Below, in pieces: positions 2,159 through 54,960 of a stretch of DNA of 54,960 nt (within the stretch, counting starts at the first letter, position 1; each line of letters begins with the position of its first letter). Origin of the DNA: Phoronis australis (lineage: Eukaryota; Animalia; Phoronida); the NCBI GenBank assembly GCA_002633005.1, contig NMRA01000125.1, forward strand, positions 199,624 to 254,583, given 5' to 3'. A program made the position numbers and the translations under genes. Below the pieces are notes generated by a model. The model worked only from the letters and a program-made list of their open reading frames with translations. It made no database searches and was not told the origin of the DNA.

Positions 2159-5100
2159 ATGTCGCTTAAAAGAATAGATGAAGTTAAACTTGAGGGTTAC
2201 GTTCAGAAACTGCAGGAGTTGGACATTAACCAGTTCTATATTTTATGTCGAATGCACTTGTCATTCGTAATTGAGCTAAACACTGAAAAATTTGAAGAAA
2301 TCTTATCCGACTCAACCACCAAGACAGACTTGAAAACCAAAAAGACAGCATTTGGCCTCAAAAAGAAAGGTTTGTACCAAATTTATTGGTAACACTGGTT
2401 TGTTCCCGTGTACACCATTCTGATCGAATGTTAGTTTTTAGTTTTTCTAAAATCTGATTGGTGACCTCTGAGTCTCGAGACAAACAGCATTTAAGTATCT
2501 CAGAGGTCTACTATTAACATGAGCCGTTACTTTTACTGCTGCTGGTACTTTATCATACTCGTACTTACTTGATATTGATAAAAAAATGATACCACATCCA
2601 GTACTTCTACTGCAGACTATTACTACTAAGGTGAAAATTCTTAAGTTTGGGAAATCTCTGAAATTTAGGACCATGAAATTCAAGCCAAAATTGAATTTAT
2701 TGGCTTTGAGTGTTGGGACATGGGTGATTTCGGCATTCATCGTATTTCTAAAATATCGGACACTGCGTTTTGTGTCAACAGAGTCTGAAAATAAACTTGG
2801 CAACTTTCATAAAATTGTCGAAAATCGCCTCTGGAGCAACATTTTAATGCGTCTCCCATTATATGTAACATTGATAGAAATGTTTATTTTCTATCAACAA
2901 AGCTTGAATTATCAAAAATAGCCAGCGACTGAACAGAATTCAGAATGGGTAAATTTCTTGTAATTATTGAATTTAGGATAGCCTGTATTGCCTATTTCTA
3001 AAATTTGGCAGATGCTTCAGCCTTTAGGAAAACAATTAAGGCAGTTCCAAACTGGGGAATTGTTATGGTACTAACGGTAAGCACAGAACATTTAAATGTT
3101 CATAGATACAGGTCTGCCCGCTATCACTTTGTTGTGTTTTTTAACTCCTTGATTTTGTGGTGTGTATCTATTAGCTAAAATGGGTGTTAATGAACACACC
3201 TGATTATTTACTCTTTGACAATAGCTGTACTTCGGGAGCAAGTTTCTGATATGCAAAATTGGTTAAATACACAACACTTGTGGTAATTAACAGTCTTTAT
3301 TTCGTTACGTTCGTATACTCGGAACAAAGTTCTACACTCAACAGAACGTTGGTGAAGCAACTGACTAAGAGACACCATTAAAAGACACGGTATTTCGAAA
3401 CATACTTGTTTTACTCTCAAGTGGAAATTAAGTGATGCAGTAATACCACCACAGAGCATAAGCTGGAAGACATACACAGTGGGACATGGCAGGTGTGAAA
3501 TACTGCAAAGAATGTTAAATGAAGGAGGATACGAACGGAACCGAATAAAGACTTTTAATAACGACAAGTGTCAATGCTATAAAATTTATCAGTTATCACT
3601 TTGCCTTCAGGTTCCAAGGAATCGTTGCTGTCTTCAGGAACAAGTTTGACTGAAGATAGCGTGGCACAGCTTAGCGAGCTCATTGACTTCCTTAGTCTCC
3701 CTCAGAGTAGGTTAAATAAGGCTCATAGTATTCAGTTATGACTGGTTGATGATTTACACCACATATTTCTTGGCACAGTAATGAAATAGCCATTTTGTAA
3801 CAGAATCCATAACTAAAATTGGGCTACATTTTTAATATGAGATGTGAACTCTACAGAGTTTTATTCTGACATTATGGAATAATGTTCTTATTTGCTTCAA
3901 ACCTTTGTGGATTAGCAACCTCTGTTGATCATCAAATGGGATTTGAGTGTCCCTTGGTCATGTACATGTCAATCTTCATTTATTTTTTAAAAACTTCTTA
4001 CTTCTTGGTTTTACTCAAGACATCAAGTATTTCGAATATTAGGGCGTGTACTAGAATTCTGTTATGGGTGCAAGATCACATATGGGCAGAAACTCCCAAG
4101 TAGGTTGATTCACAAATAATTCCTGTTTGATCGTAGTACACGTTTCACATGTGGTAAAAAGAACTGCTCATGTAAAAAAACTCATGTGAATGCAGTGTGA
4201 ATGCATATGTTTGTGGCTATTCCTTAGATCTGGAACAAGAAGGACTGTTCCGAAAAACGGGCAACATCAGTCGACAGAAAGACTTAAAGGAGCGTATCAA
4301 CAATGGTGAGAAAACTCACTTTGATAACAACGACTACAGCGCACACGATTGTGCGTCCACACTTAAGAACTACTTGGGCGAGTTATGCGAACCTCTACTA
4401 ATGGACAAGCTATATTCCATTCACTGCCAGGTAGCGGGTAAGTTATATGGTACCACCAACAAAAAGGGCACTAGATGTGATTTCTTATGAGCAATATTCG
4501 GATGTAACATGCCCACATTTTGAGAACCAGTTTGATGCCTATTATTCATTGGAGAAAACTGGTTCTTAGTTTCAGTTATATGATGACATGAATTTTAATA
4601 AATTTATTTCATATTTTCTTAAAAAATGATTGCAAGTTCAAATTTGGTGGATGATTTTATTTTTAGTGTGTGTGGTTCAAAATACCACACGAAAACTAAA
4701 CCATACTCTTTAATTTGAAGAAACAATCAGTCAAAGGCTTACTGCATTGCAGAAATCAAATTTATTACAGTATGAATTTGAGCTTTCTTGCATTTATTTG
4801 TGTCTGTAAATTTGACTATTCTAGGCTCTGCTATTCAGAATACATAGAGGGTAATAAAACAAATATCTTCTCAGCCAGGACCTTAATCACCTTGTTAAGC
4901 TGTATTTAGTTACATAGGCCAAATGAGACAGTTGCATGACTAACAGTAGGGTTCACAAAAGCTACTTTGCTGAATTAGCTTGTTAATTTCAAAAGGCCTG
5001 TTGTGTGTGAATGACACCCATTATTTACAATTCTCTGCAAAATTCTAAGGCACTATGTGGACTAGTTACCCCCCTCCATGCCCAAAATGACAAAACAGAA

Positions 5101-11100: not shown

Positions 11101-14100
11101 ACCCACATTCCATAGACCAATGAGTTTTTATAAATACGCCGGACCTGTGCCAGGGGTCTGTTTCATAAATTTAGTGACTCAGCTTTTGACAACAGGGGGT
11201 GTCTAACAGCTGCTTTAATTTTTACTGTGTCCCATTAACTTGGTAAATTCTTCATAGACTGGAGTTACGTTCTAAGTGGGTGTTACTTTTTGTCTACATT
11301 GTAGCGAAGTGTCAATGAGGATGAAACAGATGGTACGCACACGGTCGTCAGCTTCGTGGATCGCAGTGGCACGACCACGTGTGACACAGAGGTGGCACTG
11401 GCGCAGCTATACGCTCACGTTCAGTCCATGCCCGAGTCAGCAAAAAAACGCAAACTACTGAAGCAGGTGAGTTGCATAGAAAATGCTGAAAATTTTGCTA
11501 TGTATTGTTGACTGTTTTATTTTCACCAGAAGTCTTGTTACTCTGTCTGGCAAATACCTGTCTCATACGACATTATAATTTTAGAATATCATAAAACATT
11601 GTATATGCATCTTATCTTAAAAGTTTCATAACAATCCATCAACGAGTAATATTTTTTATGGCTGTGTCTAATGAATCTAATACATGCTTTCAAACAATAT
11701 TCTTGTCTTGGATTGAACACTCCTCTTTCCCGGAGGTAGAAAATTACATTGCATGGCTGATCTACTTTTCAAAACTTCAGGCTCTCCTGAATTGATTGAC
11801 AAGGGAGGAATAAAGTATTGCACATAAACACTCATTCTGACATTTGCCTTTTTGCCAATTTCTTGGTATTAGCATTGAAAGTCAATATGCAATAACTACA
11901 GAACCAATTGCATAATAATTAAGGTATGAAAGATTGACTAGTACAGCTGCATGTTATGAAGCAGGATAAGTACTTGACACATGTGTTGCATTGTGGGTAA
12001 ACACCTTAGAATGAGTGTGATGTTGTGTTATTTCAGGACGAGCCTACTCTTTTGATATCTTCTTGTTGGTAATGGTCCGTGTACGATTTTCTCTCCTCGT
12101 TATTCCAAACAGTCATATTTTTTAATACAGAAAACTGTTACTTGTAGAGTTCAAAACTATGTGAAATTATATCAAGACAAGATTACCGTGATGAATGTTG
12201 GATGACAGTTATTTTAGGCTAAGACAAGTTGAAATTGCACAAGGTTTCTGGGAAATTTCAATCATGATAGTAACACCATGTATTTTATCGATTTGAGCTT
12301 TAATAATTGACCATGGTGCTTTCACGCCTACATAGTTCTTTTTCTTGTTGTCTAGTTTAATCGAAACGGAGTTGGCACTCAGGCAGAAGGCCAGAAACAC
12401 AAGCGAAGCCGATCACTGGGAGAAAGCCTAAAGGTTGGAATTTATGTAGATTACACCTTGTGCACAGCATTGCATAAAAATGGAGTGTAAAAAGCCGTTG
12501 AAATCAGTTTAAGTGACTGAAATTTAAAAGGATATTTTCAGAGTCATTGAATGTACTAGATCTCAGATGAATATCATACTGTATTTTGGTAAATTCATAC
12601 ATTCATTCAAAACTGGTTTTGTCACCTGACATTGATAAATAAATATCTCTGCTGTGAAGCAAGATTATTATTTTGGGCCATGGCTATCAAAATTAATCGA
12701 AATTTCTGTTTTTATCAAGGAATGCTGTCGTCTTGACACCAGAGTTTTCAGATTAAAGACCTTAAAGGAAAATCCCATGTAATTTGTACATATAATGTGT
12801 ACATACTTATGCAACTAGTGGAATAAAGTAACTTACAGCATTTACAGTTCTGTGCAAAAAATGATGTTTTTGGAAATTTCTGTAAAAGTTAAGATTTTCC
12901 AGCTTAAATGTTGTCATGTGTTTATAACCTGGACATTATTTTTACGTTGCATACGAATTCTCTGGTCTTCAAGGATATTAATATATATATTGTTTTATGG
13001 AGCAGTCTACTATATATACTTAAAACATTATCAAAGAAATTTCATCCTTGGCAATGAAGGAATCCCATTACCTGAACGTCTTGATGAAACGGGCAGAGGT
13101 TAAACGGAAACGACTTAAATTTGGCTAAAAACATGCCTAGAATGCAACACCGTCCACAGAACTCCTACATAGGTTGTGCAACACTCATTCGGTTACAACT
13201 CTGATTCTGTTTCGTTTTCAAGATTGTGCCGAGAACTGTCTTGGTGTGGCTGGGCCCTTGATTAGAATTACATGCCGGTCTGATAGTGTGTTTGTTTGTG
13301 GTGGATGCAAGAGTCATGTGTTTACTATAATTCACCTTTGGGTGTATTTCCAGAAGCGTTTCCTGAGGAACCACAAGCGACAACAATCGACTCATGACTC
13401 ACAAAACGACAGTGCCTCCACCTCCAGCATTGGTACATCAGAGGTACGAGGAGAACCCCTGTATTTGAATAACCATAAAAATATGTTTACTTTTCCTGTG
13501 TGTAAGCGTTGCAGGAATACATCTGTTCTGCAGCCTATTTAAATGCTGTATTTATATTCTTCAGGCTTAGAATTTGTTAACCGTTTGGTTTACTTAGCCT
13601 TTTCATTTAGTTATTTCTATAATTTGAAAGTTTGAGTACATTCCAACTTTTCATCTTGTGTTCTTGTTTTTTTATATTAACAAACAATGATTCAATTTGG
13701 GACAAAAATACTTGTTAAAATTGTGATTTCAAAATTTTTAATAGATTACTAATTTGCTACTAATTAATGCTCATAATTTTACCAAATATTATTTGAAGAT
13801 AGCTACACAGTAACTCAATATAACCACTGGAGCATATACTTATTAACAATTGTTTTGTGGAGAAATTTGATCTAACAAAATTCCATTTTTTCGCTATATG
13901 TTGTCCTAAACTGAAGAATTTTACCTTTGGCCATGGTGGTTCATCTAATCTTTCAGTCAGGTTATGAAAACAACAAGCATGCTGGCCACATTTTGTGTTA
14001 TAAAAACAACAACTAGCATGTGGGACACATTTTGTGTTATGATAACAACAAGCATGCTCACCACATTTTTTGTTATGAAAACAACAAGCATGCTGGCCAC

Positions 14101-16163
14101 TTTTTGTGTTATGAAAACAACAAGCTTGCTGACCACGTTTTGTGCTATGATAACAACAAGCATCCTCATCACATTTTGTTTGTAAAAACAACAACCATGC
14201 TGGCCACATTTTGTGTTAATATGAAAACAACAAGCATGCTCACCACATTTTGTTTTGTAAAAATAACAACCATGCTGGGCACATTTTGTGTTATGATAAC
14301 AACAAGCATGCTGCCCACATTTTGTTTTATGAAAACAACAAGCTTGCTGGCCACATTTTGTGTTTAGCTCTTACAAAATTGGCTTGTTGATAACCAAAAC
14401 CGCGACTGAATTGCATTACTCAACTACAACAGTTTTCAAAAAAGTCGACCATATCTCTTCTCATAAAATATCGCCAAAATTTTGCAGCAAATTTTTTTGT
14501 TTAATTTTCAAATAATTCTGTGCGGCATTATTTTTGTACATTACCTTTCTGGGTTTTTGTTGAAATTTGGGTTTTTTTGAAAGCTTCTTTATTATAGCGT
14601 GATGCAGTTGCCTTTAAGTTACTACATCCTGGTTGTCGAATGAGTATTCACATCACAATACCTGTATGCTAGTCTATATGAAGGCTTTACTACTTCACTG
14701 TTGTGTGCACCGGCACTGCTTTGTCCATTTTGTTAGCACGGGCATTGTCTCATTTGCATGCGTGCCTGTCACTAGCCAATCACAAGACTAGTATTGCTTC
14801 ATTTGCATGCGTGCCAACCTCTAAAAAGATGCTTCCGTTCCGTGAATATTCATTGATTAAGTAGGACGTTTTGCTTTGTTTCGTTATGCTTTAATTTTGT
14901 TTCCCGCATGTTCAGTTCAGCGATGTCTTCAGCCCGTCCACACCCTCACCCTACGCGTCGCCGCAGGTGATGAGAATCTATAAGAAGAAAGTCCAGGTAG
15001 GTTTGCAACAAAGGCATGGTAAGCGTCGACTTGCCCTGTGCTTACTGAATGCATGTACACCGAACCATCTCGAGCCACGTTCCCCTTGTGAAGCATTATG
15101 TAACCGGCATACATCCTAATATTTTGTGCTTGTAAAATCAACCAAAAATTATAAAATTTGTGCTGTGTTTCCTTCTCTACTTATGCTTCTCTGCTCAGTA
15201 AGTCTAAAATAGTTTTGTCTGCTTTTCTTCTAACTTCGATTATTTTTACTTCCTTCATGACTTGTTGTCAGTTGTTCATCAGAAGCATTTACAAGGGGTC
15301 GCGTTTTTGCACTTTTCTTTCAAACTAATCCAAATGTTTGTGTGGTAATATTGCATTTATGATACCTGCATCTTGTTAATTTTCTCCACAGTCCACTACC
15401 GCCTCGCCCGTCCGTGTGATCGACCTTAGCAAGGCTACCAACAGTCCCCTGTCGAAGCGTGCTGCCTCTACACCCTTACCTAGCTCCATCGCTGACAAGA
15501 CCATCCTGCGATCAAACTCAGACGACCGCCTGAAGGTCACAGGTCATGCCCCGCTCATTAAGCGTCCGATGATGGTGACACCGGACTCGCTGAAACCTCG
15601 CAAAGACAAGGATTCTAAATTTGTCTCGCCCATCTCTTTCTCTATGAAGGGAGTGGCCAAGCATGTACAGGTAAACTATGATTTATGTTATTGTCTTTTT
15701 GCTTAAAACAATTACTCATGAAAGGGTCATATACGAAACTTACACCGACAATCTGCGAGACTGTTCTTACGTGTTTTTACCACTTCCCAGAAAAGCATCT
15801 GTAGCAGTCGTAAAAGTTGTTTAAGGACTGACTGCAGACAAAAATGTGTGCCAGTTGCCCAACAATAGTAATTGTCAAAAACACAGTCACACGGCATTCA
15901 CAGGAACTGTATCCAAACTCTTGGCTATTTTTGGCCCAGATTTCATCCAAAGCTTTTAATTCAGTAAAGGATTCCAAATGAAAGTCTTGATTCCTGTTTT
16001 TCCTATTGTGTGTGTGCATGTAGTTCCAAGCTGTTAGAACAGAAACAATTGTCTCCCATGTCAGTAGGACTGGAATTTCTCTTCTTGTGTATCTTTCTTT
16101 AATTATCTCCTTAAATCTTCCAAAATGTATTTATTGCAGTCCGAGAATGCCGTATTTGTCTGA
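2159..16163 (+). CDS. ARHGAP19: Rho GTPase-activating protein 19-like (RhoGAP), multi-exon
   Basis: Phase-consistent GT-AG exons: 2159-2369, 3611-3706, 4228-4437, 5182-5369, 6503-6589, 7476-7601, 11305-11466, 12356-12433, 13354-13443, optional 14916-14996 (or -14966), 15392-15670, 16140-16163 (TGA). About 543 aa with the optional exon. RhoGAP motifs: EGLFRKTGN (arginine finger), DCASTLKNYLGELCEPLL, LQLLFLLLPSINRELL and NKMSADALGTMFAPQIL. ARHGAP19-type segments: LCRMHLSF and ALAQLYAHVQSMPESAKKRKLLKQFN, recalled as similar to the vertebrate HDMPESAKKKQL. Confidence 0.9.
6905..7095 (-). mobile_element. Possible SINE body fragment (Deu/Nin-domain-like)
   Basis: Minus strand GGATCACCCACACGACTCATTTTTGGAGTTAGGAGTGTTAAC resembles the recalled DeuSINE core (GATCCC..CAC..GAGTAGGGGTGTTAAC). 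Judged by eye only. Confidence 0.3.
8482..8556. mobile_element. Short TA-flanked MITE
   Basis: TA|CAGGGGT...ACCCCTG|TA termini with an internal inverted GAACCAGTTT/AAACTGGTTC. A related inverted copy lies at ~4511-4565. Confidence 0.6.
10776..10926. mobile_element. Tc1/mariner(pogo)-type MITE
   Basis: TA|CCGTAAACATTCGG ... CCGAACGTTTACGG|TA terminal inverted repeats with TA target duplication; internal TTAACCGCCCA repeated three times plus one variant. Confidence 0.75.
13961..14366. repeat. 36-bp minisatellite, about 11 copies (ARHGAP19 intron)
   Basis: Unit GTTATGAAAACAACAAGCATGCTGGCCACATTTTGT in tandem. It explains the five overlapping repetitive ORFs in the track. Confidence 0.95.
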
Positions 16164-31924: not shown

Positions 31925-33033
31925 GTAAGTAAGCGATATGTTGATCAATAATTGGTTGAGAACTACAGACATTTTCTGTACGACTAAAAGACAAGTATTT
32001 AAATGTAATCTCGTAGTCTGTTCCTGTAATTAGCTAAGGTATTATCGAACTTTTTGTATGATTCAATAGTGTCCGAAATTCATTTCTTTCAAACCTTCGA
32101 AATCAAAAGTATTTGTTTTTGCATGACGTTAAGCTAACTTGCAAATTGCTCGAGACAAAAGTAGATTGCAAAATATGGTAAGCTATTGCCAACTCCAGGT
32201 CCTCAATTTCTCAAAATAAATTTTCAAGGGCTTGTGAAATAATGGTGAAACATTTGTTTGTAGAAGTTAACGAGGAAACACTTGTAGGCCACGTCCGGCC
32301 GTCGAAATTGAGTTATAAGTTTATTGCCGTACCTAATTTTTATCCAAATGGAAATATCCTTTTACATGTGTATTTAACATTTTTTCAAACCTACTTCAGT
32401 AACAGACAATACAGCGAAAATCGAAAATTATGTGTGTCAAAGTGTTTTTAAGGAAGTCCTGTTTTGAATGGATAAACTGTCACCGCATTTTCCCAGACTG
32501 AAATGAAAAATGATCTTTTCTGAATTCGCCAAAAGGGCGTCCTTAATATTGTGAGAATAAGAAATTTGCTTTTCTAGCGTTACTGATTCAAAGTTGGGGC
32601 GGCGTATTTCAGACATGCTCGGGTAGTACTCACCTATATCTATAAGTAGGGTAGAGGATGTTGCTGGCAAATTATGGTCTTCACCTATTTAGAGAATAGA
32701 CTGGACCTTCTAAGAAAATGTTATACTGTCATATGGTTTTAATCACAACATTCTTTCATAAGGGTTAATTCTTGGACACCTGTATGAATTTTAACTCCCA
32801 CTGAAACAGTAGGGGCATATAAAGTAAAAATGAGTTCATCTTGTCAAAACGAAAGTTTAAAAAAATGTCAGAGAAGGGAACCTTTCGGACATAGGTTTGT
32901 CAGAATAGGGACTCTTTTGTTAGTGGGAACTTGCCTTAAAAAATCACCCTTCTGAGGGGTACGTCTCGTGTACTATATGGAAGTAATACTCGCAAAGGTA
33001 CAAAGAATTGACCTGTTTGAATTGTTTTCAGGA

Positions 33034-33171
33034 ATGAACACCGTCATCTTAATCGCGTGCTTGGCTGCATTGTTTTCAGTCCCTTCTCTCGGGTGCTTTA
33101 TTTGGAACTGTCCGATACAGCGAGTAGGCAAACGTATCCAAATCTCCACTACCCAACGTGAAGTTGTTCAG
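33034..33171 (+). CDS. Neuropeptide coding exon 1: signal peptide, hormone (33094-33126), GKR (33127-33135)
   Basis: A 20-aa hydrophobic signal ending S-L-G is followed directly by C-x4-C-P, then the amidation/convertase site GKR. Donor CAG/gtacat. Confidence 0.93.
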
Positions 33172-36100
33172 GTACATATTTGAACGTCCGTTCACTTTTA
33201 TTTATTAACATGAAGAAATTGCATTGCAGGTAATATTAAGTTCAGATGAAGAATTTTTACTGGAACGCAGGCTTAAGTCTGATAACTGAGAAAACATGTG
33301 CCATGGCGTCTTACCGTAACATATTGGTAAATAAGGTCATGGCCATACAGGAGAAATGCTGCAACGACTTCTATCATAAGACCTTAACGGCTTATACCAA
33401 TCTTACGGTACGTAACAAATTGGCATAGAAAAGTTTACTAGAGGAGACGAGACAAGTGAGAACGCATCCTCCTCCTCATCTTGTTTATCCGCTCCCTTCA
33501 TTCGCCTCCACGGTTTCGCCTCTTCACCCCGCCGGGCCACCAGATTTATGCTCCAATCCCCTCGTCGTAGACTGCAAAACACAAATTAGTGATTCGTTCC
33601 GGTTGTTCATTGGGCTTACGAGGCACTTTACCTTCTCCTACGCCTTTGTAATTTAATGTGCAAATTGATCATATCCTGGTCAAGCACTAAGTAACTTAAA
33701 GAGACACCCCTAGCGTCTGATTCGGTGCGAAGGATAATGAAAGGGTAGATTAGCTAGAAGTCTGACGATTGTTCACATGTGATGATTTTTTCAGGCAGCG
33801 GATCAGAGTCCGACATGACTTCTGATCGGACGGTATGTGAATCGTTAGACAATCTCCAAAATGCGTAGAATTCTTACAGAGTGACCACCACACACTTAGT
33901 AAACAGTTTCCCTTCACGACTTACTTCAAAGGTTACTGATCAGAAAGAAGACGTCTGTGCTCGGAATCAATATGAATAGTGTCCATTTCTCGGTTTAACC
34001 TCTGCAACGCTGAGCGGGGCCGAAATCAACTTCATTAAACAAAGTTATAGCTTATAGATACATGTATATCCGAAAAAGTCTGCCCTGTTCGAGGCTTTTT
34101 CCACTCATAGTGATTAACCTTCATGAAACAGGACCCAAAGATATTTTAATTTTTTATGACGGATTTTGTGATCTCATAATGAAAAAGAATGTAAGCAGAA
34201 AATACACCAAAAGACTTCACTTTACGCATGGCCATGGGTTCATAACTAAGATTAAAGGTAGGAAATGGAAGAGTAATCAGGGTAACTGAAAACAGATGTG
34301 TACGTCACAGTCAAATCTTTTGCAGTGTCTTCCTTGCGGAATATTCGGCGCAGGTCGTTGCGTTACGGAGAATCACTGCAACCATCCTACCCAAGGCGTT
34401 TTTGAATTCGAGAGATGTGCAGCAGAGAATGAGATTGAAAGGCCATGTCACGTGTTGGGTCGGGACTGCAGCTCAGCAGACCTGAGATTTGGGAAATGCG
34501 TAGCAGACGGCATGTGCTGTGGAGAAGGTGAATACTTCCTTTCGTTTTTATATTGATGACTCAGAGAACAGGGGCAGATCCAGAAATTTGAGCTAGGGTG
34601 GTAAAGATCACCGATCTGTAAATTGATGTAAAATCAATATGTAAAAACGTCCTTAAAGGGCCACAATCTGTTTTACCCCAGAAAAGCGCTAACTGGCCAT
34701 GGCTACTAGTTGGGAAAAGTTTAGGGACCATGGGCCCTAATGAATCTACAACGAGGACTGACGCTAATTTGAAAAACCTTCTCATAAATGCTTGGAGTTG
34801 ATTATTCACTAAAAATACTAGCTGCCAAGTTTTCCTACAATCCTACGAAGAAATTAAATTGCCAGAAGTAAAGCTAAGAGATGGTAAATGTTGAAGACGG
34901 GTCTACATCTGTGAGAAATGTTCAATTTAGATTTTCCAAAAAAGAAAGGAACGTTTGTAGTAAGGCATATTTCAACACTTCAAGCAGGAAATATCTCGAG
35001 TGAAACGGAGTCCACTAGAAGTGTTGGTGGAAATCTCTTTATACAACTGGGCTCTCTGTCTTGGCAAGCACTTCTCAAAACTTTTCAACGGTTTATTATA
35101 TGATTTATTATATTTTGTTTCCAAAAGGAGAGAAATATTGCCAAATGACTGTAGTTTCTCCTTTCGCGAGTGAATCTATGACAGAGTTAACACTATATGC
35201 GTTTCGAACAAAAAATCATGCATCTACACAAGTCGTTCCTACTTCAGTACTAGGCGCATCTCAAAATGACATGAGTGGGACTTGTAGTAGCCAAAGGTTA
35301 ATAACTAAACTAAAGTTTTATTAAGACTGCATGTATAACATCAAAATAAGGCAAGGAGACTTTCAAAAGGCTAAGAAGCCGCATCCATGAAAGCCACCCA
35401 TGTCTTGTTGGTCAAAAATAAACAAAATATTCGTTTCAACAAATTATCTCACTACATGAGCAAAACAACAACCTGTTTCTAGTATCAACAAACAAAAAGA
35501 TTATATATCTATTTAAAATGTGTACATGTACAAGGGACAAATAATTAGGTATTACAATGCAAACAACTGAGGCAATAATGGGAGAAACTAAAATAAGGTA
35601 TAGATCAAGAATGATATAACCTAAACTTTAACACGTTTGGCCCAACAAATGAGAAAAATGAATACGTTATACTTCATGTTATACAACGTATGTGTCTGCA
35701 CCACTAGTCACTATATGGAGATTGGTGATATGCAAAAGCATCCCAACGAGTGCAAAGCACGAGTTCAAATACCTTTGCACAACACAAATCGTGATATAAC
35801 AACAGACTTGGTACAAACAGGTACGTTGTATAACATTTGAATCCTTCCCTTTTACAAGTTTTGATTTGTTTTGAGTTGGTTGGAACTGACACTATACAAG
35901 ATTTAACGACTTTTTAGAAAATTTGATTTTTTCAAAAAAACATATCTATTTTAATCGACAAAATATACTCCGACACAAGTAGGGGCCTTACGACCAGTCT
36001 TACGTCCAGTCTTATGACCACAACTAAAACATTTACGAGCACGACTAAAACATTTACGACCATGGCTAAAACATGGCCAATAAGAGTGCTGCGTGATCCT

Positions 36101-37708
36101 TATTTGTAGATTGGGGTCGACAAATCCCTCTTGGGTTTGTTTTTGTGATTATTTAGCAATTTCGTATCCATCAAAACACAATATCAAATACAAGAACCAA
36201 TAGAACGTTTTTGGAAAATGCGATTCTTTTTGATAATTGGTGCGGTGAAGCGGTATTCTTAGTGGTACAAAAACTCATCCGACATGAGCTCAGTGTGGTT
36301 AGGGATCGTTTCCTAGCTTCAACGGTTCAGTGACGCCGTTGGCAGTGATCCGGCACACCGGTGAAGGGGGAGGGTCTGGCCGCGACTCGAAACCGCTCTA
36401 CTTGTCTTTGGAAACCTGTTCATTATATGACCGTGAAAAAGGACCACTTCTTTCAGCGACATTAAACCCGTGTTTTCAGACAAAAACAAGTCTAGACTTA
36501 GACTAGTCATCATCACGGAATTGGTGTTCAATTGTTCCCAAGTGAAATTAGACACCAGGGCTTTGAATGAACTAACACCAAGTTATTCCTCGAGATAGGG
36601 CGGGGTTTGAATAAATAACTGCCAATTCGTCCCAAACTCCGAGATCACTTCTAGACTAAGCAAGGGACAAGAAAGGAAAATTTTTTATAACGGTAAGTCA
36701 CCTAAACCAAATCTTGTTTTGTGACTGAAAGCCAAACCGCTTTAAGATACGTCTGTGTAGCTTTTGGAAAAGTGATGCGGGAACGCATTTTTTTATCTTT
36801 GAGGAGCACGTTTCAAAACGAGTCGGGCGCAGACTAGAACCACTATTATTTTTTGTCTTATCTGGCTTTTAATGAGTTAAAAACTCATTTCATTCATGTT
36901 TGGAATAAAACCATTGGATAATTACTTTCTATAGCAGTACACAGTGACCGCTAACCTCAACGTCACGCTATACTCCCTGAATGGATGGGCACAGGTTGTC
37001 ATAGACCGGTGCTAATAGCTTTCGGTAACTAAAGACAGGTTCGAGTTAATTATTTTATTACCTTCTATGCTCCAGCCAGTGCTATGAAGCCTTGACATGT
37101 GAACAACTCCCGACGTCCTTTCAGCAACTGTTACACTGTCTCGTTCATCCAATAACCTGCTGCCCCTCGTAGCTGGGGTTACATTAACTAACGCTGTAAT
37201 TGCCGATTCGGTAACTGCAACTCAACTGTATCTAACTAAACTCAACTCGACTCAACTTTTTCAACTTACAGCTTTTTCAACTCAACTGACTGTCCCTAAC
37301 CCGTGCCTGGGTATTTATAGTCGCTTATAATGTTCTAGAACGTTTCAGTAACACAAACACGTTTCAGAGCTTTTCGCAATAGGTTATAGAATGTTCTAGA
37401 CTGTGGTTCTACTTTAACCACTAATATACTAGAATCTTCCAGAATGTTCTCAAGTAATCTGTTGTAAACATATTACATCACCCCACTTACCTGACCTATT
37501 GTGTCATGTTAATCAATTGCTAACTTTTTGAACTAAAACCAGGAAAGCCTACTTGTGACACTCACAATGTAACTTTTACCGTTGACGAGCCAGAACGTGC
37601 GACTGCATAGCGGATTAACCACAAATCACTGATTTTGTAGGTGGCTGTATGAAGGACACCAAATGTGTGAATGTGATGACGTCACTGGAAAATGAATACA
37701 CGACGTAA
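33034..37708 (+). CDS. Vasopressin/oxytocin-superfamily neuropeptide-neurophysin precursor (135 aa; predicted peptide CFIWNCPIQRV-amide)
   Basis: Exons 33034-33171, 34326-34527 and 37641-37708 with intron phases 0 and 1, at the same positions as in vertebrate AVP/OXT (Q|CLPCG and after CCxx). Protein: MNTVILIACLAALFSVPSLG-CFIWNCPIQRV-GKR-IQISTTQREVVQCLPCGIFGAGRCVTENHCNHPTQGVFEFERCAAENEIERPCHVLGRDCSSADLRFGKCVADGMCCGEGGCMKDTKCVNVMTSLENEYTT. Confidence 0.93.
34326..34527 (+). CDS. Neuropeptide coding exon 2: neurophysin core
   Basis: ttttgcag acceptor; CLPCG..G.GRC, RC..EN, PC and GKCVADGMCC motifs; 202 nt; phase-1 donor G/gtgaat. Confidence 0.93.
36960..37480 (-). mobile_element. LTR-like fragment with heat-shock elements and TATA box, antisense in neuropeptide intron
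   Basis: The minus strand starts TGATGTAAT at 37480, then nGAAn arrays (37431-37450, 37388-37401, 37332-37346), TATAAATA (37319-37312), AGTTG repeats and AATAAA (~37058-37053). The left boundary and TSD are not resolved. Confidence 0.55.
37641..37708 (+). CDS. Neuropeptide coding exon 3: neurophysin C-terminus
   Basis: ttttgtag acceptor in the correct phase. It supplies the last two cysteines (GCMKDTKC) and TAA; AATAAA signals follow at 37936, 38106 and 38193. Confidence 0.85.
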
Positions 37709-38954
37709 TCCGACCAACTCGTTTTCGAGCTTCACAGCATTTCAGATAAATACAACAGGATACAACTTGTGGACGCACACTCTTTCATCAGAACCAGAAC
37801 GGTTCTTTGTTTTGATTGCCACAACAGCGTTTTACCTAAAAATTATATATTGACTTTGGAAGGACCAGATGGTGCAAAACAGCCGCGGGGACTCAAGTTT
37901 TGAATTTCAGCTCTTTCCAACAACGAAATTCAGGAAATAAAAAAACCGGAAAAGCAAATCTTTATGGCTGTGACAAGACACAATTAATTTTTACGAATGG
38001 CCGCAACAATTACAATTGTTGCCTGTCGGGCTCAGTAATATATATAACATGGTATACACCTTTATTTTCAAATATAAAATATTTTACCTGTATTTTACAC
38101 TGGAGAATAAAGGTACTTTGTATACCATATTTCATTGTAAATTGACTTGGTATTTTGTTACAAATGAGTGGAAATTTTTTCAAATTATCAACAATAAAAT
38201 TCATTACTTGAACATTATTTTGTTTTTCTTTAGCTGATGGGGTGTCACCCAGTTTGTCTTTAGTGCCAGACTAAGTGAAATGAGGTGCCTTGTGACCCTA
38301 AGCAATGAGCTGCCTTAGTGTGTGGGTACTCTGAAAGGAACAGGGCAAATGTGTCTGCAAAGCAAAGCTCCTGGTTTCCATGGTGAACCACAGGCACAAC
38401 TTAAAGGCGCATTATCAGTTTACATCCAAAAACGGATTTTAGGGATTACTGTTAGAGGGGACAGACTTACTGAAGTTATTTAGCTTTGAGGAACTGCACA
38501 ATTTCACTGTAACTTTTGATTTTAACAGAGGGCACAAATAGAGTGGAATGACTCAAAACGGACAAAGAATCAATGTTTAAAGGGGCGCCCTCTGTTGAAA
38601 ACCAACTTTTGACGAGTTAGTACTAAAAACATTGGTCTTATCTTGTTTTACTTACTAACTTTTACTAAGATTAGAAATTATTCCTGAGTTTGGGAAGAAC
38701 TGACACTCATTAAATTGCTTCAGCACCTAAATTTGTTTGCCATAGACGGTTACGTTCACTTGCCAACATAAATAAAAAGTACAGTATAGCCAACAGGGGA
38801 ATTCCAGGAGATTTACTGTAGCACGGGATGATGTCACTATGGAAGGGCACACAAGTAAATCTGTAAAGAAAGTTGTTGTCTTTGACACCAATACATGGTT
38901 GATGGTGACCACCATGTTTATTACTCATTTGGTAAGAAAACACATAAATGCAAA

Positions 38955-41900
38955 CTATTTTCGTCCTTTAGATTTGACAGGTGTTGGCTGTGTAAACACC
39001 ACCGGACACTTTAGGCCAATGTACGCTTTGGAACCAAGTGCAGCTGAGGTCTTGGCCACATGACAACCCAGACACCTGACTAATGACATCAACCTGAAAT
39101 TGAAGAAACCAGCATAAGGTTACAAAGTAACATGACCACATCAGCAGAACATCCAGCAATTAACAGGGTTATTAAATATGCCATGTAACCATGCTGAACT
39201 TCCAGAAATCACTTCTAATATGCGTAATGAACAAGTTGCGACCAGTTATGTAAAAACAACTGATCTAAATGATATATCATTTAAGGTTACGTAGGACCCA
39301 AATTTGGCAAACTTCCAAACATCATATCTCAGAAATGGCTGATTGGATTCACATGAAACTCTGAGATACTATTCTTTATGCAATGTTCTACAACACATTA
39401 ATTTCAGAAAGAACTAAAATCTGCAGTGTTCTGGATAATTGCCAAAATAAATAAAATTGTTGCTAAGATTCTACAAATTTTAAAGTGTAAGCTAGAAATG
39501 AGAAAACAGGAATCCCTTGTCTACCACACTGTGGCTTAAATTAGTGAGATTTTACCAAAATAGCATGAAAAGAGAAAGGTAGAGTTTGCGGACAATTGTG
39601 TTAATGCTTTGCGCTATATGTAGGAAGTTTCTGCCAGTACACAAAATCTACGACAGTCGTACACCGCAAATTTCAGGGGGTGACAATGTATTTCTGCGAA
39701 AACAAAATGGCATTAAACCCTTAGCACTACACAATCACACAATGAAGTAGTGATTAAAAGATTTTTTTTTCCGGATAAAAACCTATTGTATGAATACAAC
39801 AGTGGGATATTTCTTAAGCATAAGTGAAAATAGCTTAAAACCAAATTGCAACATCAGTTAGGATTTCAGTTGTTTCAGTTACACGATTTTTCAATAAAAG
39901 CAATGTTCAAAAGCAGATGTCCTTACTTGTTTTGTCCCAGCTTCAGACTGTCCTGTACCTCAGCCACTGAGAGTTCAAACTCGTCAATAATCATCATCAG
40001 CACAATAATGTGCACGGCCAGCTTATCCTTCATTCTGGGTGGCATGCTCCTGACGACAGAAAAAACACATAATGATTACTGAACCTAAGTAGCGACTGAA
40101 ACACTTTCATGGCAATTTTGTTGCACGAGAATTTTCATTTATTTTTAATGGCCTTAATAGATACACAGCCTAATTACATCTGGTGTCAATTCCTGTAAAA
40201 GATGACCTAAGCTCATCGTAGAGAGGAAAGTGCAAAAGGTCAATATTAGAGGCTTCATATTCAAATCACATAACGAGAAAACATACAGAGTAACAAAACT
40301 TGTCTGAAGTAAAATTTGCCAAACACCTCAACTTGCGTTTCACCTCTGTTTAGCTGTCAAGGTTGAATTCTTAACTAAAGTGCTATAACTTTATCAGTTT
40401 TTAGAAAATAATAAGGTAAGGACAAAACACCCCCCAGTTAGACACTACCTTCCATACTACACGTATTAGGTAAAGAACTGTTAAAGCTACACTTTGCCAT
40501 GTTATAAGTGGCTAAAAACTGAACATCGAAAAAACAGGTATTTTACTTTCACAAATCGGTCTCACAATTTTCTTTCCTCTCATAGTGTGATTACTATCGT
40601 CAGTAAGGATCACAGAATAAGTTGGATCAGTCCACAAGAGGGCAAATGCTGCTCTCTCCAAGATAAAGTAGTCTGCTAAATTTCATGAAGATTCTACACC
40701 AGCACATATAAACAAGGACGTTGCAACTAGTGTGCAAGATCACATGTATCGTGCATTGAGAATAATACAGAGCCCATCTGTTTTTTAAATTAATTCCTTT
40801 TACAGTCCGCTCAGGTGTGCCCATTGCAATTAACATCTGGGATCATTTTTATACCTTATTGATATGTAATGAATACTGGAGGAGCTAGAGACCGGACTCA
40901 AGGGTCCAGCAGACTGCCCGAGTGGAACTCGAATCCACAACCTAGAGTAACGGAAGTGGACAGTTATCCCATTAGGCCACATGGCTTACTCTACTACTAG
41001 TCAATGCATATGACCACCATCAACTCCCAACTTTATCTACCTAGTGACTCCTTTGGCTAGCTGCATCTTTTGCGAGAACGTGTCCAATAACTTCCTCTTC
41101 ACGTTGTCTGGTATATCGATGGTAAATGACTCTACAACAGAACACAGCAATGTTATCTATGTGACTGTGTTATCAAATCACTGGACTGTGAAATTAGATG
41201 GGATTACTGCTGGACTAATGTGGAAGCGACATCGGAACTCGTACGCTGAGCAAACGTGTAGACATTAACGTTGCAATGACGTCAGTTAAAATTACGACCA
41301 TGAATCATCATCTGTTTGGTGTCAATGCAAGCAGACTGACAAACCTTTGCGGCGCAAGTCTGCACTTCGGAAGTGATACATTTCAATCATATAAGATAGG
41401 TACAGAAGACATTTCACCCTGTGCAGTCTATACTTCTCCTGCACTGGAAGCCTCTTCATGCGGCTTAGGATATAGCTGAAAAGAAACATCACATAAATCT
41501 CAGTGAACAATCCAGTAATTCCATCTGATGTTTGGAAAATGGGACTTGGCTATCTCCAGCCAAATTGCTTTCAAAGAATAAACTGACCAGGTTGTCAACT
41601 GTAACTTTTTAAAGTTCAGTTGCCAGCAACGATTTGTCAGTCTGTCCCAAGCGCAGAAATTATATCTAATTTGTGTTGGAAAAGGTTGAGAGCAGTGAGC
41701 AATAACAGTTCAAACAGAAAACAATATTTTTGAGAATAAAAATCAACAAATTTGGGTGTACTAAGATTCTAAAGGAAAACAATGTCATTTAGTATTGAAA
41801 AAACAATAAAACGTTTATTCCCACCATCTGAATCACCAACCATTACCATTTTCCAACACACGTGGCCAGGCTCCAAAACAAATACTTACTTTACTTTTGT

Positions 41901-44900
41901 AATAGTGTCAATGCTGGTTTTATCTTTTGCCGCTTCACGAGCCAAAGCGTCTAAAGAGCCCATTTCATCTGAAGAGATAACTGGCAGCTGTCAAGGAAAC
42001 CTCAAGCAGAGAGAGAATATCACAGACAGCATTAAACCCTGGACCAACAAAACACAGTCAGCTCAGCAAACAAGTGTTACCTACGGAATAAACCTCAACT
42101 AAATTTGGAAAAAATGTCAATGGAATTTCAAACAATATTCAGGGGGTGGAATTAATAAAAGAAAATATATTGGACAGTCTGCTAAATCCAGTGGTGGCAC
42201 TGAAAAATTTTGTGCTACACCAGTAAAATTTCTATGCTTTGCATAATCATATCATTTTAGCAGCAATGACTAGGGAGCAAGATTCAGTTGCCAGAAAAAT
42301 GTTCATGTGTAATACATTGATAATTTTTGTTTACTTCCTGCACAGCAAGTTTCGCGCTGAAAGAACTTGCGATGGCTTGGATGCCTACTTTCCTAAAGAA
42401 CAAACACACACTAGGTTCATACAGGATTTGACTCTTGGGTACTCAGTTTGATCCCGTCGTTGTATTTACAGGGTTCAGACACTGAATAAGGTGTACAGAA
42501 TTGGAATTAAAAGGTACAGTAATGTATTGTAGATTCTACCCCCTCAAAATTGGTGGCAAAATTTGTGTGGCAGCTTATTTTTAACACCAGGTTTGAACTT
42601 TAGGGATTGCTGACAAAATAATAATAGACATGAGGTAGGGTATCTTGAAATTTGGACGTTTTATCCAGAATGTATGCCTGGTCAAGAACGAATCTGCATA
42701 TTTTTAACAAAAAAAGATACTGCTGTCAAGTTTGTATGCCTCCTGTGGACAAGTAGCGTCAGTGTAACACTGTGGTATGATGGATGATTCCCCACTTGGT
42801 TTCACATCTACAATGAAGAAAAACAAAACATTAAGAACTGCAATTTTACAAAAAAAACCTTTAATACTGTTTCCTGAGTTTCTAAGCAAAACATATAAAG
42901 GCAATGCACACATGGTATTGAGGCAGTTAAAATTACTTAAAAACTAAATAAAGCAGGGTTGATGGTACATGTAAAAACACCCAATACCATGACGTTCACA
43001 AAGACATCGCTATGACAACTTGAGATTTAAACCTGTTAGATGTCTTTAACTGAAAGCCACTAAATTCTACAAAACCATGGCAATAGGTATGCCACAACCC
43101 TCCCACTCCCCACCTTCCCTTACCCTCATCTCTATGACTCAGTCACTCACCTAGCTGGGGTGTGTCTTTAGTGTACTCTAGCGCGTGCTCCACTGCCGTG
43201 GCAACCGCCTTGCCAAGAGCCTCACCCTCAATGGCATTGTTAAGACGCGAAGTCACCGAATTTTTCTTTTTTGAGCTACCAAAAGCCATGGTCAGCATGT
43301 CACTCTAAAAAACAAAAAAGTGAAGCCTATGCAACTTTTGGACTATCTTCTCTGAGTACCAGTCTGTCACATTTCATCTTGAACTACTCTAAAGCCAGTC
43401 AAAATGTGACTACAAACATTAAAAGTTGCAGCCTTGTTCTCACATGAATCGTGTTTTCACGGACGAGTCATGCACTGACCGTTTTATAGAAAGATTTACA
43501 GACATAACCTGTGCGCATTGTGGGAAATCATTCGTAGGAGATAAAACATCAACGTTTCCAGTCACGAAGTGGCAAGAAGGAAACATATCTCATAAATCCC
43601 TAGTATGAAATATGCATGCATCTGTTTTTGTTTATCAATAAAAATATGTACATGCAACCATGGCAAACAAGCAATGAATTAGACAGTGGTTTACCTTTTG
43701 CCTAAAGGTCATGTCTGTGACATCTAAGTCTTCAACAGACACACCTGCAAACATAAAAGAAGATTACTGATATTTTTCAGTTAAAACAGTCCTGTTCTTT
43801 TCCAAACCGTCATGAAGCTAGCATGAAAAATTATATTAATATTCAAATATCATTGCTTATCAACGATCTACATCACATTCTATAATAAACCAAAATTGAC
43901 CACGTAGCATATTGAGTTCTGTCGTCAGCAACAATGAACTTTTAGTTCATCCCAAACTGCATAAGTCAAGGTAGACATTATAAGTGTTATGCCGATAAAA
44001 GACCTAATTCAAGAGACAGCGAGCGCTTTTGACATCGAAAGTTGCCAACAAGGCACCAGGACCTCAAAGTTGTTTACAATGATCCAAAACAAGAACTGTT
44101 TGTAAACAATACGGTAAAATCTCGCCAATTTAGGATACAACATGGCTGACAGCTGAAACTTTATTTCTTATTTTTTAAATAAAATACATAGCACCTAATC
44201 AATGCTTAACAATGTTCACGTTTTATATGATATTAACCATCACACAACATTTTGAAAACCTCTGGGCATTCACAACAACGTAAGAAGACCTTGAAAAAAT
44301 GAGAAAAGGGCAATTATGGTGAATATCATTTTTGTGCAAAATTAGTGACATTTTACCCTACTCACTAGCAATGTTAACAAACCAATGAAGCAGACAGATG
44401 AGACTGATTACTTACTGGTTTTTGGCTTCAAATGAAACAAGGAGGCATTGTGTAGCGTAACTTCGTTCGTTTTCTTATCCCTTACACCAATCAGATACCT
44501 ACAACGAGAAGAACATGAAAAAACACAATAGATGAAAACCTACCCATAGTTCTGCAGCCAAGAAAATGTACCAAAAACTTGCACCTAGTCGCCAGTTTCA
44601 GAACTAGTCTCTTGCCATTGTACACTCTTGGTACATAAAACGACAACATGCAAAATTAACTGAGAGGTGAATTCAATTCACTGTATCCTCCATTGCAGAA
44701 ATACAAAACACAATATGACATAAAAGTAGCAACAAGAATACAACTCTTTCTTTCATAAATATCTGTTGACTTGTATACATTTCACAATGTGAGGTCAGTG
44801 GATATCACGAGAGTAACTGCATGTAAAAGGAGCCACAAACCTACCTCCTGTCAAGAGAATAACTTTTGATTCATGCTATGCTCGACACAAGAACAACTAA

Positions 44901-49434: not shown

Positions 49435-51160
49435 TAGCTGAACTAGAGACAGTGAAGCTCCTATAGGTGCTTCATATGAGGGAGGCTTTTCGGCAAATTA
49501 TGTTTCACACTGATTAAAAAAACAAAGTCACGTTGTTACAAGCACCTTTTGCGCATAGAGGGAAACCTTAGGAGGACGTTGACGTCTTTAGTTCCTTCCA
49601 ACTCCAACAAATACTCCCATAACCAAACTTTTACTTCGAGCAGTCCTTTGTTCAGTTGACCAAATCAGCAACTGGCCATTTTTAACACTGCACGTGCCAG
49701 GTAGTAGGACGGCTTATCTCCTGGCGTGCACAGGGCCCTCACTCACCAGAGGAGAAAGGTGCCTGTACCTTGTAAAAGGGAATTTTCTCAACGTATTTTA
49801 CTTTAAGAGAGCAATTTTCGCATCGTTTTTTACTTAGATGGGATTTTTTGTGAGGTTTATTTACTGTACGTTTTTTATGACAATAGTTTTCATGCTTTCA
49901 TAAATAAGCAAGAATCAAATTTAAATTAAACAATAAAAAGTAAGCCACTTTTACATCCAACATTTATTTGAAAAAGAGCGAGTGAACCCGGCCACTTGTC
50001 ATACAGCTGAGTCATCAGTATGGCTATGCCTTCAGTGTCCACATGCAATGTATTATGGTTAGGACACTGCTTGGCTTATGAAGGCAATACCAAGACAATG
50101 GTACATTTTCACACAAGCACAGAACAATGGAGTTGTTCGTAAATATCCACCAGGGTAAATAACTTTCAAAACCGTCTGCTAAATATGCCACAGTGACTAA
50201 TAACACCTTAAAAACATAGTTAAGCAATGTTTGTAAGGAACAGAACAACCACCTTGTACCACAGAACCCATACTTGCTAGCACAATAATGAAGGGTTTCC
50301 GCTAAACAATCTTTTTAATCTATCACAACAGTGTGTAATGTTACATTTCCTTAAATTTACCATTCAGTCCTTCTTTGACCTCAGTGAAGAGACAAGAAGA
50401 GCAATGCTCACCTGTTCTCTAAAGGTGTAGCAGAGAGTGACAGTGTTGTTGGCCACAGTGTCAGTGAATAATTCTACTGAGCTAGCTGTTCAAACGTGGT
50501 CTGCTTGACACTGCTTCTGAGAGGAGTGCACAACAAGTTTATCCATGAAAACACACTTTCTTGCATGTTTCTATACTCTGCGTGTGACTTTTTTGTAATT
50601 CTTCTCTTGTAGAACTTGTTTGTTTTCAGTTTTCAGCTGCAGACGAACGGAAGGTGTTTTTTACTTTTGTGTTTTCAATACGCGAGATCGAAACAATGCA
50701 AAACTGGTTCAAGCCCTCAAGTGGCACTTTCTTAATAGGGAAACCAGTTTGGGACGTTTCCATCTAGTCTGGCGACTTCGAAATCAAAGTGAGTGGGTTT
50801 GAATACGATAATTTTAACATTGTCTGAGGTTAAAAATACGAGGGGAATTTTTAATGGTTCAGAGGGGAATGTTTTGACCTCATGAGGGAAATTTTCGTCC
50901 GCTGATATTCGGCCCCAATTTCAAGGGATTGAGGGCCCTCCTGGTGCGCAGTGTTAGAAATAGCCAGTTCCTGATTTGGGCAACTGAATGTGCTCGAAGA
51001 AAAAGTTTATGTCAATTTTTGTTTGAGTTGGAAGGAATTAAAGACATCAATGGACTGTTAAGGTATCTCTCTATGTGCAAAAGGTACTTATAAAAATGTG
51101 ACTTTGATTTTTTAACCAGTGTGAGGCGTAATTCGGCAAAAAGCTTCCGGCGCATGAAGC
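49435..51160. mobile_element. Family A foldback element interrupted by a nested insertion
   Basis: Left arm ~49435-49730 (+) and right arm ~50941-51160 (-), matching the intact copy at 52173-52749. Confidence 0.75.
49731..50940. mobile_element. Nested hAT-like non-autonomous element
   Basis: Termini CAGGGCCCTCA / TGAGGGCCCTC, subterminal AGGGAATTTT-type repeats at both ends, and imperfect flanking duplication (GGCGTGCA / GGTGCGCA). Confidence 0.6.
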
Positions 51161-51182
51161 AGCAAAATTTTTCCAACACGCG

Positions 51183-51628
51183 ACGCAATTTTTCACGGCA
51201 CCGAAAGGCGACGCAAAAGATCGTACCACAATTATAGATGCAGAATAACAGTAGAATGCCAAGTTTTCCAACACCTGTAAATAATTTAGTTTACTGAAGA
51301 AACAGCATAGTTTTTAATGACACTAATTTTGTGTCAGACTTTAGCTGGTCAATTTTTAACCCACATCGGTGCAAAGCTGTATATTTAGTACACAGCTTTT
51401 CACCTAGCCTTGGTGTAAAGCTGCATACTAACAGCTGTGTGCCGATGTGGGTAAAAAAATGACCACATAAAATTTGACATAAAATTAGAGTCATTAAGAA
51501 CTAGTCTTCCTTGAGTAAACTAAATTATTTACCGGCGTTGGAAAAATTGGCATTCTACCGTTATTCTGCTTCTAAATTTGTGATACGATCTTTTGCGTCG
51601 GCTTTCCGCGCCATGAAATATTGCGTTA
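51183..51628. repeat. Long palindrome (foldback MITE) with ~220-bp arms
   Basis: Mirror pairs include CGACGCAAAAGATCGTA/TACGATCTTTTGCGTCG, AATAATTTAGTTTACT/AGTAAACTAAATTATT and ACCCACATCGG/CCGATGTGGGT, centred near 51407. Confidence 0.9.
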
Positions 51629-52172
51629 CCTATGGGCCATTTTTTGCCGATTATTCAATCAACTGATCCTTCACGAGGTTGCGTACCTGTCACAACAAAT
51701 TATCAGAACTGGTTTCACTTTTAAGAGTTTTTAGAATTTTGATACCAGCAAACCAAAATTCAGAACAAATTTTACTGCTATAAAGCTGTCATTTATCTAT
51801 CGAGAGATGTTGCTTAAATTTAGGAAATGGCACAGGCGCGTGTCACGAGCATACTGTTTTCAAAATGACGACAGATTTATCTTTGTTACAAAAGGCAGAG
51901 AATTACGCAAAGAAATGACCTTCATTAGGCTGTTTTTCGCTTCAACGGATGTAACAGGCAAGGTGAGTGCCGGTTGACTCCCAGATTTCGCATGCACCCC
52001 ATCTGGTCTTTAGCTCTACAAGTTGATACAAGATTCACAGCGAGATGACGAGCAGAACTACCCAGGCTGTGTGTAATTTTGAGGTCTGTTGGTACTGAAC
52101 ACACAGTGGTACCTAGCTGTAGTCTTCATACAGCTAGCTGGCTGACTTTTTTGCACCAAACCCTCAAGGGCA

Positions 52173-52749
52173 TAGACAATGACCACCGTCTCTACCTGGC
52201 CCAGTACAGACGGTGTACTTCTATAGGAGCTCCATATGCTGGAAGCTTTTAGGCGAATTATGCCTAACAGTAACTAAAACATGAAAGTTACATTGTTATA
52301 AATACCTTCAGCGCATAGTAAGACACCTTAGGAGGCCGTGGATGTCTTTAATTCCTTCCTACTCAAACAAATACACCTGTTATCCAACTTTTTCTTCAAG
52401 CAGTTCCTCATTCAGTTCCCAAAATTTGAAACTGGCCATTTTTAACACCGTACGCGACAGGTGATATGATGTCAAATCCCCTGGCATGCGCAGTGTAAAA
52501 ATGACCATGCAGTTACCGATTTTGGGAACTGAAGAAGGATTGCTTAAAAAAGTTTGATAACAGAAATATTGTTCAAGTTGGAATGAATTAAAGACATTGA
52601 TGGCTTCTTAAGGTGTCCGTATATGCACAAAAGTATAACAACATGACTACGATGTTTTAGTCAGTTTGAAGCATAATTCACCAAAAAGCTTCCAGCATAT
52701 GAAGCTCCACCGTCTCTACTGGCAAGACAGAGATGGTGGTCACTGTCTA
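52173..52749. mobile_element. Complete family A foldback MITE (~580 bp)
   Basis: TIR TAGACAATGACCACC / GGTGGTCACTGTCTA (14/15 match). The two arms are inverted throughout around a centre near 52470. Confidence 0.8.
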
Positions 52750-54795: not shown

Positions 54796-54960
54796 CATAG
54801 GCAATGACCATCGCCTCTGTTGGCCCGAACCAGAGGCGATGTAGAGGCTATAGGCGCTCTGTACGCCGGAAGCTTTTCGGCAAATTATGCCTCGCACCGA
54901 CTAAACCATCAAAGTCACGTTGTTATAAATACCTTTTGCGCATAGAGGAACACCTTAGGA
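54796..54960 (+). mobile_element. Family A element, left arm, truncated by window end
   Basis: CATAGGCAATGACCATCG terminus followed by the CTATAGGCGCT..GCCGGAAGCTTTTCGGCAAATTATGCCTC..CCTTTTGCGCATAGAGGAACACCTTAGGA block. Confidence 0.8.

Follow-up and report, generated by a model that had tools for sequence, protein, structure and literature searches.

The window, a stretch of 54,960 nucleotides from Phoronis australis, contains a real oxytocin/vasopressin-family (VP/OT) hormone gene, which we identify with near certainty as the phoronid vasotocin-related paralog 2. Its precursor probably releases a cyclic, amidated 11-mer that likely acts on the VP/OT-type receptor of the paralog-1 nonapeptide. 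The precursor was already described in 2021 and is not novel: it appears as "vasotocin-related_2, Phoronis australis" (TRINITY_DN239299_c0_g1_i1) in the available supplement of Thiel et al. 2021 (PMC8557429). The outcome is the confirmation of a catalogued gene, to whose published precursor the window adds the exon-intron structure.

The hormone gene lies on the forward strand and consists of three exons encoding a 135-aa precursor, from an ATG at 33034 to a TAA ending at 37708. The introns, 33172-34325 (1154 nt, phase 0) and 34528-37640 (3113 nt, phase 1), are both of the GT-AG type, and we take both to be positioned as in the vertebrate vasopressin and oxytocin genes. The coding span of exon 1 (33034-33171) comprises a predicted 20-aa signal peptide (33034..33093), the predicted mature cyclic 11-mer CFIWNCPIQRV (33094..33126), the glycine amide donor and Lys-Arg cleavage site (33127..33135), followed by an isoleucine, and a linker forming the N-terminus of the neurophysin (33136..33171), which runs to the phase 0 donor at 33172. 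Exon 2 (34326..34527) carries the neurophysin core with 10 cysteines. The coding part of exon 3 (37641..37708) supplies the last two neurophysin cysteines and the TAA, and agrees with the published C-terminus. Three acceptors in 34528-39900 would give an in-phase cysteine pair, of which only that at 37641 fits the published C-terminus. Candidate poly(A) signals (AATAAA) are located at 37936, 38106 and 38193. Upstream, a splice-acceptor-like TTTTCAG (33025-33033, forward strand) stops 2 nt short of the ATG at 33034, so a non-coding first exon is likely.

The preliminary description of this DNA had placed CFIWNCPIQRV-G-KR directly after the signal peptide, and translation of 33094-33135 on the forward strand gives exactly CFIWNCPIQRVGKR. 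The leader itself was called from hydropathy instead of a dedicated predictor: residues 1-20 are hydrophobic, with a 7-residue Kyte-Doolittle mean of up to 3.6, and S-L-G immediately precedes Cys1. The 135-aa model was borne out by the GT-AG introns and by a published protein of equal length. That protein derives from a transcriptome and extends across both junctions of the model, which shows that the gene is transcribed and that its splicing follows the model. By the definition of a VP/OT-type precursor in the available parts of PMC8557429, the locus has one peptide copy straight after the predicted signal peptide, cysteines at peptide positions 1 and 6 that would form the disulfide, a glycine followed by a dibasic site (GKR, 33127-33135) and, at the C-terminus, a neurophysin domain.

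Compared by eye, as were all published relatives, the window precursor and TRINITY_DN239299_c0_g1_i1 are equal in length, contain the same peptide and are identical at 134 of 135 residues. The single difference is at residue 78, which is Ala in the window (GCA at 34419) and Val in the published precursor; it is most simply an allele. Besides this match, assignment to paralog 2 follows from the shared Trp4-Asn5 ring and a CNH...GV neurophysin motif, a description that is ours and was read off the authors' alignment. The peptide and GKR are also spelled out in that alignment (PMC8557429). The suggestion in the preliminary description that the ligand was possibly undescribed, for which prior publication had been named as the refuting outcome, therefore falls. 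A full-text search of main texts did not return CFIWNCP; the published sequence sits in a supplement.

According to Thiel et al., phoronids, linguliform and craniiform brachiopods and a single palaeonemertean have two vasotocin-related paralogs (PMC8557429; the bioRxiv version agrees), and paralog 2 is present in all four phoronids surveyed. The authors suggest that the phoronid and brachiopod paralog 2 share an origin, with tree support of 0.964 for the phoronid paralog-2 clade and 0.788 for its union with the brachiopods; the phoronid paralog-2 neurophysins sit on long branches in this tree (PMC8557429). The four phoronid peptides given there, all followed by GKR, are CYLWNCARIA, CFIWNCPQR, CFLWNCPRDAR and CFIWNCPIQRV. 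All four share Trp4-Asn5 and lack a terminal Gly-amide, length ranges from 9 to 11 residues, and Pro7 is missing in one. An ordinary paralog 1, CFWRNCP[SA]G, is present as well in P. australis and P. ijimai; in P. australis it reads CFWRNCPSG-GKR (PMC8557429). Because lengths within the phoronid paralog-2 group span 9 to 11, the 11-residue form is a labile trait inside a known paralog group.

Translation agrees with the earlier description of the peptide residues (Phe2, Ile3, Trp4, Asn5, Pro7 and a five-residue tail with Val before the Gly). Oxidised and amidated, the 11-mer would have a computed monoisotopic mass of 1374.67. Measured against the canonical consensus C-x4-C-P-x-G-amide (PMC5153645), it has a five-residue, Val-ending tail where the nonapeptides have a three-residue tail with Gly-amide. 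The precursor shares with canonical VP/OT nonapeptide precursors, including P. australis paralog 1, the signal peptide, a single Cys1-Cys6 peptide, GKR and a neurophysin, and differs from them in having 11 instead of 9 residues, Val-amide instead of Gly-amide and 12 instead of 14 neurophysin cysteines. Like it, paralog 2 in P. ijimai, P. psammophila and Phoronopsis harmeri, as published, combines a C-aromatic-[IL]-W-N-C ring with GKR and no terminal Gly-amide, and the neurophysins lack the same two cysteines; the tails, of 3-5 residues, differ in sequence from species to species.

The preliminary description named only nematode and tunicate peptides as elongated exceptions, a picture that proved too narrow for elongated or non-Gly-amide forms. 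Besides nematocin (11 aa) and the Styela and Ciona peptides (14 and 13 aa; PMC7181382), there are three arthropod decapeptides, among them centipede and copepod ones, the centipede case being an additional paralog alongside an ordinary nonapeptide (PMC5153645), as well as 10- and 11-mers from other phoronids and one nemertean 10-mer (PMC8557429). All of the nematode, tunicate and arthropod peptides retain the ring and extend the tail, but the tails are unrelated to the one found here and the lineages are distant, and the extensions are therefore independent. The proposal that this elongation arose independently of nematodes and tunicates looks sound, since the peptide sits in the phoronid paralog clade (support 0.964). 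The available text of the platytocin paper (PMC8896804) does not give the peptide sequence.

Exon 2 matches the neurophysin family (Pfam PF00184, E 6.5e-9, 37 bits against a cut-off of 27.2), while a Pfam scan of exons 1 and 3 matched no family. Against sequences of solved structures, the best 8 of 15 matches were bovine neurophysins, at weak E-values of 0.006-0.024. An AlphaFold model of exon 2, built on an alignment of 2 rows, was of poor quality (mean pLDDT 56) and uninformative on disulfides; in a Foldseek search with this low-confidence model the top 10 of 19 matches were likewise bovine neurophysins, none at E<=0.001. The neurophysin of the precursor has 12 cysteines, compared with the usual 14 (PMC5153645). 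Asn65 and Val71 stand at the positions that align with bovine Cys28 and Cys34, and a four-residue deletion follows. We take Cys28-Cys34 of bovine neurophysin to be one disulfide, in which case the loss would be a clean removal of one bridge; our literature search returned no published neurophysin disulfide map. Read by eye in the authors' alignment, this pair is absent from 4/4 phoronid paralog-2 rows and both cysteines are present in 34/34 others (PMC8557429). The joint loss suggests that the remodelled 12-cysteine domain still folds. Glu80 aligns with bovine Glu47 and is thus retained; deletion of Glu47 is reported to trap provasopressin in the cell (PMC5267430). In the vasopressin-neurophysin crystal described in the same source, the buried parts of the hormone are limited to its N-terminus, Cys1, Cys6 and residue 2, and residues 3, 4, 5, 7 and 8 are exposed. 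Carrier binding would therefore not have to suffer from Trp4 or the longer tail, and the neurophysin should tolerate both.

The peptide motif contributes less to the case than these features. A six-frame scan of the window yields a single instance of the loose pattern C[FYL]xxxC-x(2-7)-G-[KR][KR], and 3 of 40 windows simulated with an order-2 Markov model contained this ring-plus-GKR motif (0.075 per window on average). By itself it is only modestly unlikely by chance, and the case is therefore carried by the in-frame neurophysin exon and the match to the published transcript. A tandem second VP/OT gene was sought and rejected: the ring motif is single, and tblastn with exon 2 and with P0003 finds only exon 2, all other matches lying at E>=1.7. 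P0003 is a 79-aa singleton from JGI/IMG, an exon resembling neurophysin that was annotated as a gene in a metagenome (contig of 1103 nt); it is 45% identical to exon 2 and retains both cysteines that the exon 2 product lacks. It was one of three matches to exon 2 (67 aa) in a representative-protein search, the other two being long proteins with many short matched stretches. A homologue search with the same 67 aa, restricted to proteins of 119-2000 aa, returned 2 candidates, neither of which reached E<=0.01.

We consider it likely that the precursor is processed as predicted. Following the pathway of the family, the signal peptide would be removed at Gly20 and Cys1 and Cys6 would oxidise into the ring. 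The peptide N-terminus and Phe2 would then dock in the neurophysin, enabling folding and granule sorting. A convertase would cut after Lys-Arg, a carboxypeptidase trim the basic residues, and the amidating enzyme turn Val-Gly into Val-amide. The residue following Lys-Arg is Ile (33136-33138, forward strand), a position occupied by Ile or Val in three of the four published phoronid paralog-2 precursors and by Gly in paralog 1. A beta-branched residue after a dibasic site can slow convertase cleavage, and this Ile may affect cleavage here. Our literature search on phoronid vasotocin/oxytocin-type neuropeptides, which covered few subscription journals, returned no mass spectrometry, expression or receptor test of the 11-mer. 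The mass spectrometry in the available parts of Thiel et al. 2021 covered the nemertean Lineus longissimus only (PMC8557429).

The final step, which we hold least firmly, is that the 11-mer would be a second ligand of the one VP/OT-type GPCR in the catalogue, probably with a potency or release site of its own. For P. australis, Thiel et al. list two precursors, one VP/OT-type, one NPS/CCAP-type and one GPR150 receptor, and they report no receptor duplication matching the two precursors (PMC8557429). With one listed receptor and no matching duplication, a shared receptor is favoured over a private one, and we regard the 11-mer as somewhat more plausibly a second ligand of that shared receptor than not. 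These receptor counts come from incomplete transcriptomes, in which 2/4 phoronids are listed without any VP/OT receptor (PMC8557429). A search of the literature on phoronid neuropeptides, again covering few subscription journals, found no phoronid VP/OT receptor assay.

The preliminary description had instead inferred a diverged GPCR partner and a signalling system of its own, neither of which the listed receptors support. We consider it unlikely that paralog 2 acts on a divergent VP/OT-type receptor of its own that the transcriptome survey missed. The published peptides give this reading some substance: the gene is kept in all four phoronids, and the tail varies freely and Gly-amide is lost in all four orthologues while Trp4-Asn5 stays fixed, a pattern that could reflect a different receptor. 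GPCR detection is patchy in the surveyed transcriptomes, and for Lingula, where both paralogs occur, 2 VP/OT receptors are listed (PMC8557429). However, molluscs with a single precursor are also listed with 2, so the two receptors of Lingula may be unconnected with paralog 2, and P. australis, which has the fullest phoronid set (48 rhodopsin-beta receptors), shows one VP/OT receptor and, to the authors, no duplication corresponding to its precursors. Variation among the orthologues could also mean that the precursor is poorly cleaved, or that the peptide has drifted under relaxed selection and is now weak, an antagonist or without a dedicated receptor. The differing tail length and sequence, the lost Pro7 in one species, the lost neurophysin cysteine pair and the long branches are in keeping with drift, and the Ile or Val after the dibasic site with poor cleavage. 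Nevertheless, all four species retain the ring and the GKR site in a reading frame that is open and transcribed, and the joint loss of two cysteines points to a domain that still folds, making this reading rather improbable.

Least probable of all, and in our view very unlikely, is a role for paralog 2 as the ligand still missing for the NPS/CCAP-type receptor of phoronids and certain brachiopods, whether it be a VP/OT duplicate that switched receptor or the survivor of an ancient neurophysin-bearing sister gene. A CCAP precursor was undetected in 10/10 phoronid and brachiopod species (PMC8557429), and the receptor is listed in 3/10 (Lingula, Novocrania and P. australis), all with paralog 2, and in 0/3 species without it. 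This co-occurrence is weak (3/7 versus 0/3, about p 0.29 by hand): four of the seven paralog-2 species show no NPS/CCAP receptor, and the three negatives are one clade. Non-detection is also common, since the tachykinin, luqin, MIP and RGWamide receptors listed for P. australis are likewise without detected precursors. The model of Semmens et al. derives the NPS/NG/CCAP gene from a neurophysin-bearing cyclic-peptide precursor (PMC4422128), and the authors' 38-row neurophysin alignment, as available, has no NG-peptide outgroup, so their trees could not test such an origin. NG-peptide precursors of invertebrate deuterostomes do carry a neurophysin (PMC4422128), but the architecture found here is VP/OT-like: a single peptide copy directly after the signal peptide, with a C-x4-C ring of a size unlike CCAP, and neither Asn-Gly motif peptides nor a multi-copy C-x5-C ring. 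The published nemertean CCAPs are multi-copy C-x5-C peptides, the nemertean Tubulanus has CCAP and paralog 2 together, and the brachiopod paralog-2 peptides are ordinary nonapeptides. If the peptide did activate the NPS/CCAP-type receptor, this would bear on the split between vasopressin/oxytocin and NPS/CCAP in early bilaterians. The gene would then be a protostome precursor that keeps a disulfide-ringed peptide with a neurophysin, as predicted for the ancestral NPS/NG/CCAP state, or a VP/OT duplicate that switched receptor family. On the favoured reading of a shared VP/OT-type receptor, the locus is useful as an example in which two markedly dissimilar oxytocin-type ligands would share one catalogued receptor; it also provides a natural 12-cysteine neurophysin.

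To describe the surroundings of the hormone gene, 12 candidate exons or ORFs were scanned against Pfam. Upstream lies a RhoGAP-domain exon on the forward strand (4176-4487, PF00620, E 8.8e-15), from a gene that presumably resembles ARHGAP19. The ORFs 2081-2392 and 15380-15706 probably belong to the same RhoGAP gene; neither matched Pfam. Downstream and convergent with the hormone gene is a multi-exon gene on the reverse strand that is RNA polymerase I A49-like (RPA49/POLR1E, PF06870), with exons at 39932-40060 and 43146-43304; it spans 39932-43745 and extends further. Neither neighbour suggests a functional link to the hormone gene. A 36-bp tandem repeat at 13961-14364 (11 copies, 79% matches), open on both strands, is probably an intronic minisatellite. 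Finally, an imperfect, MITE-like palindrome of about 500 bp at 51157-51652, with arms of 146 nt (82%) and 73 nt (84%), is nested among several copies of another, dispersed repeat in both orientations (about 49440-49733, 51007-51161, 52200-52708 and 54827-54960).
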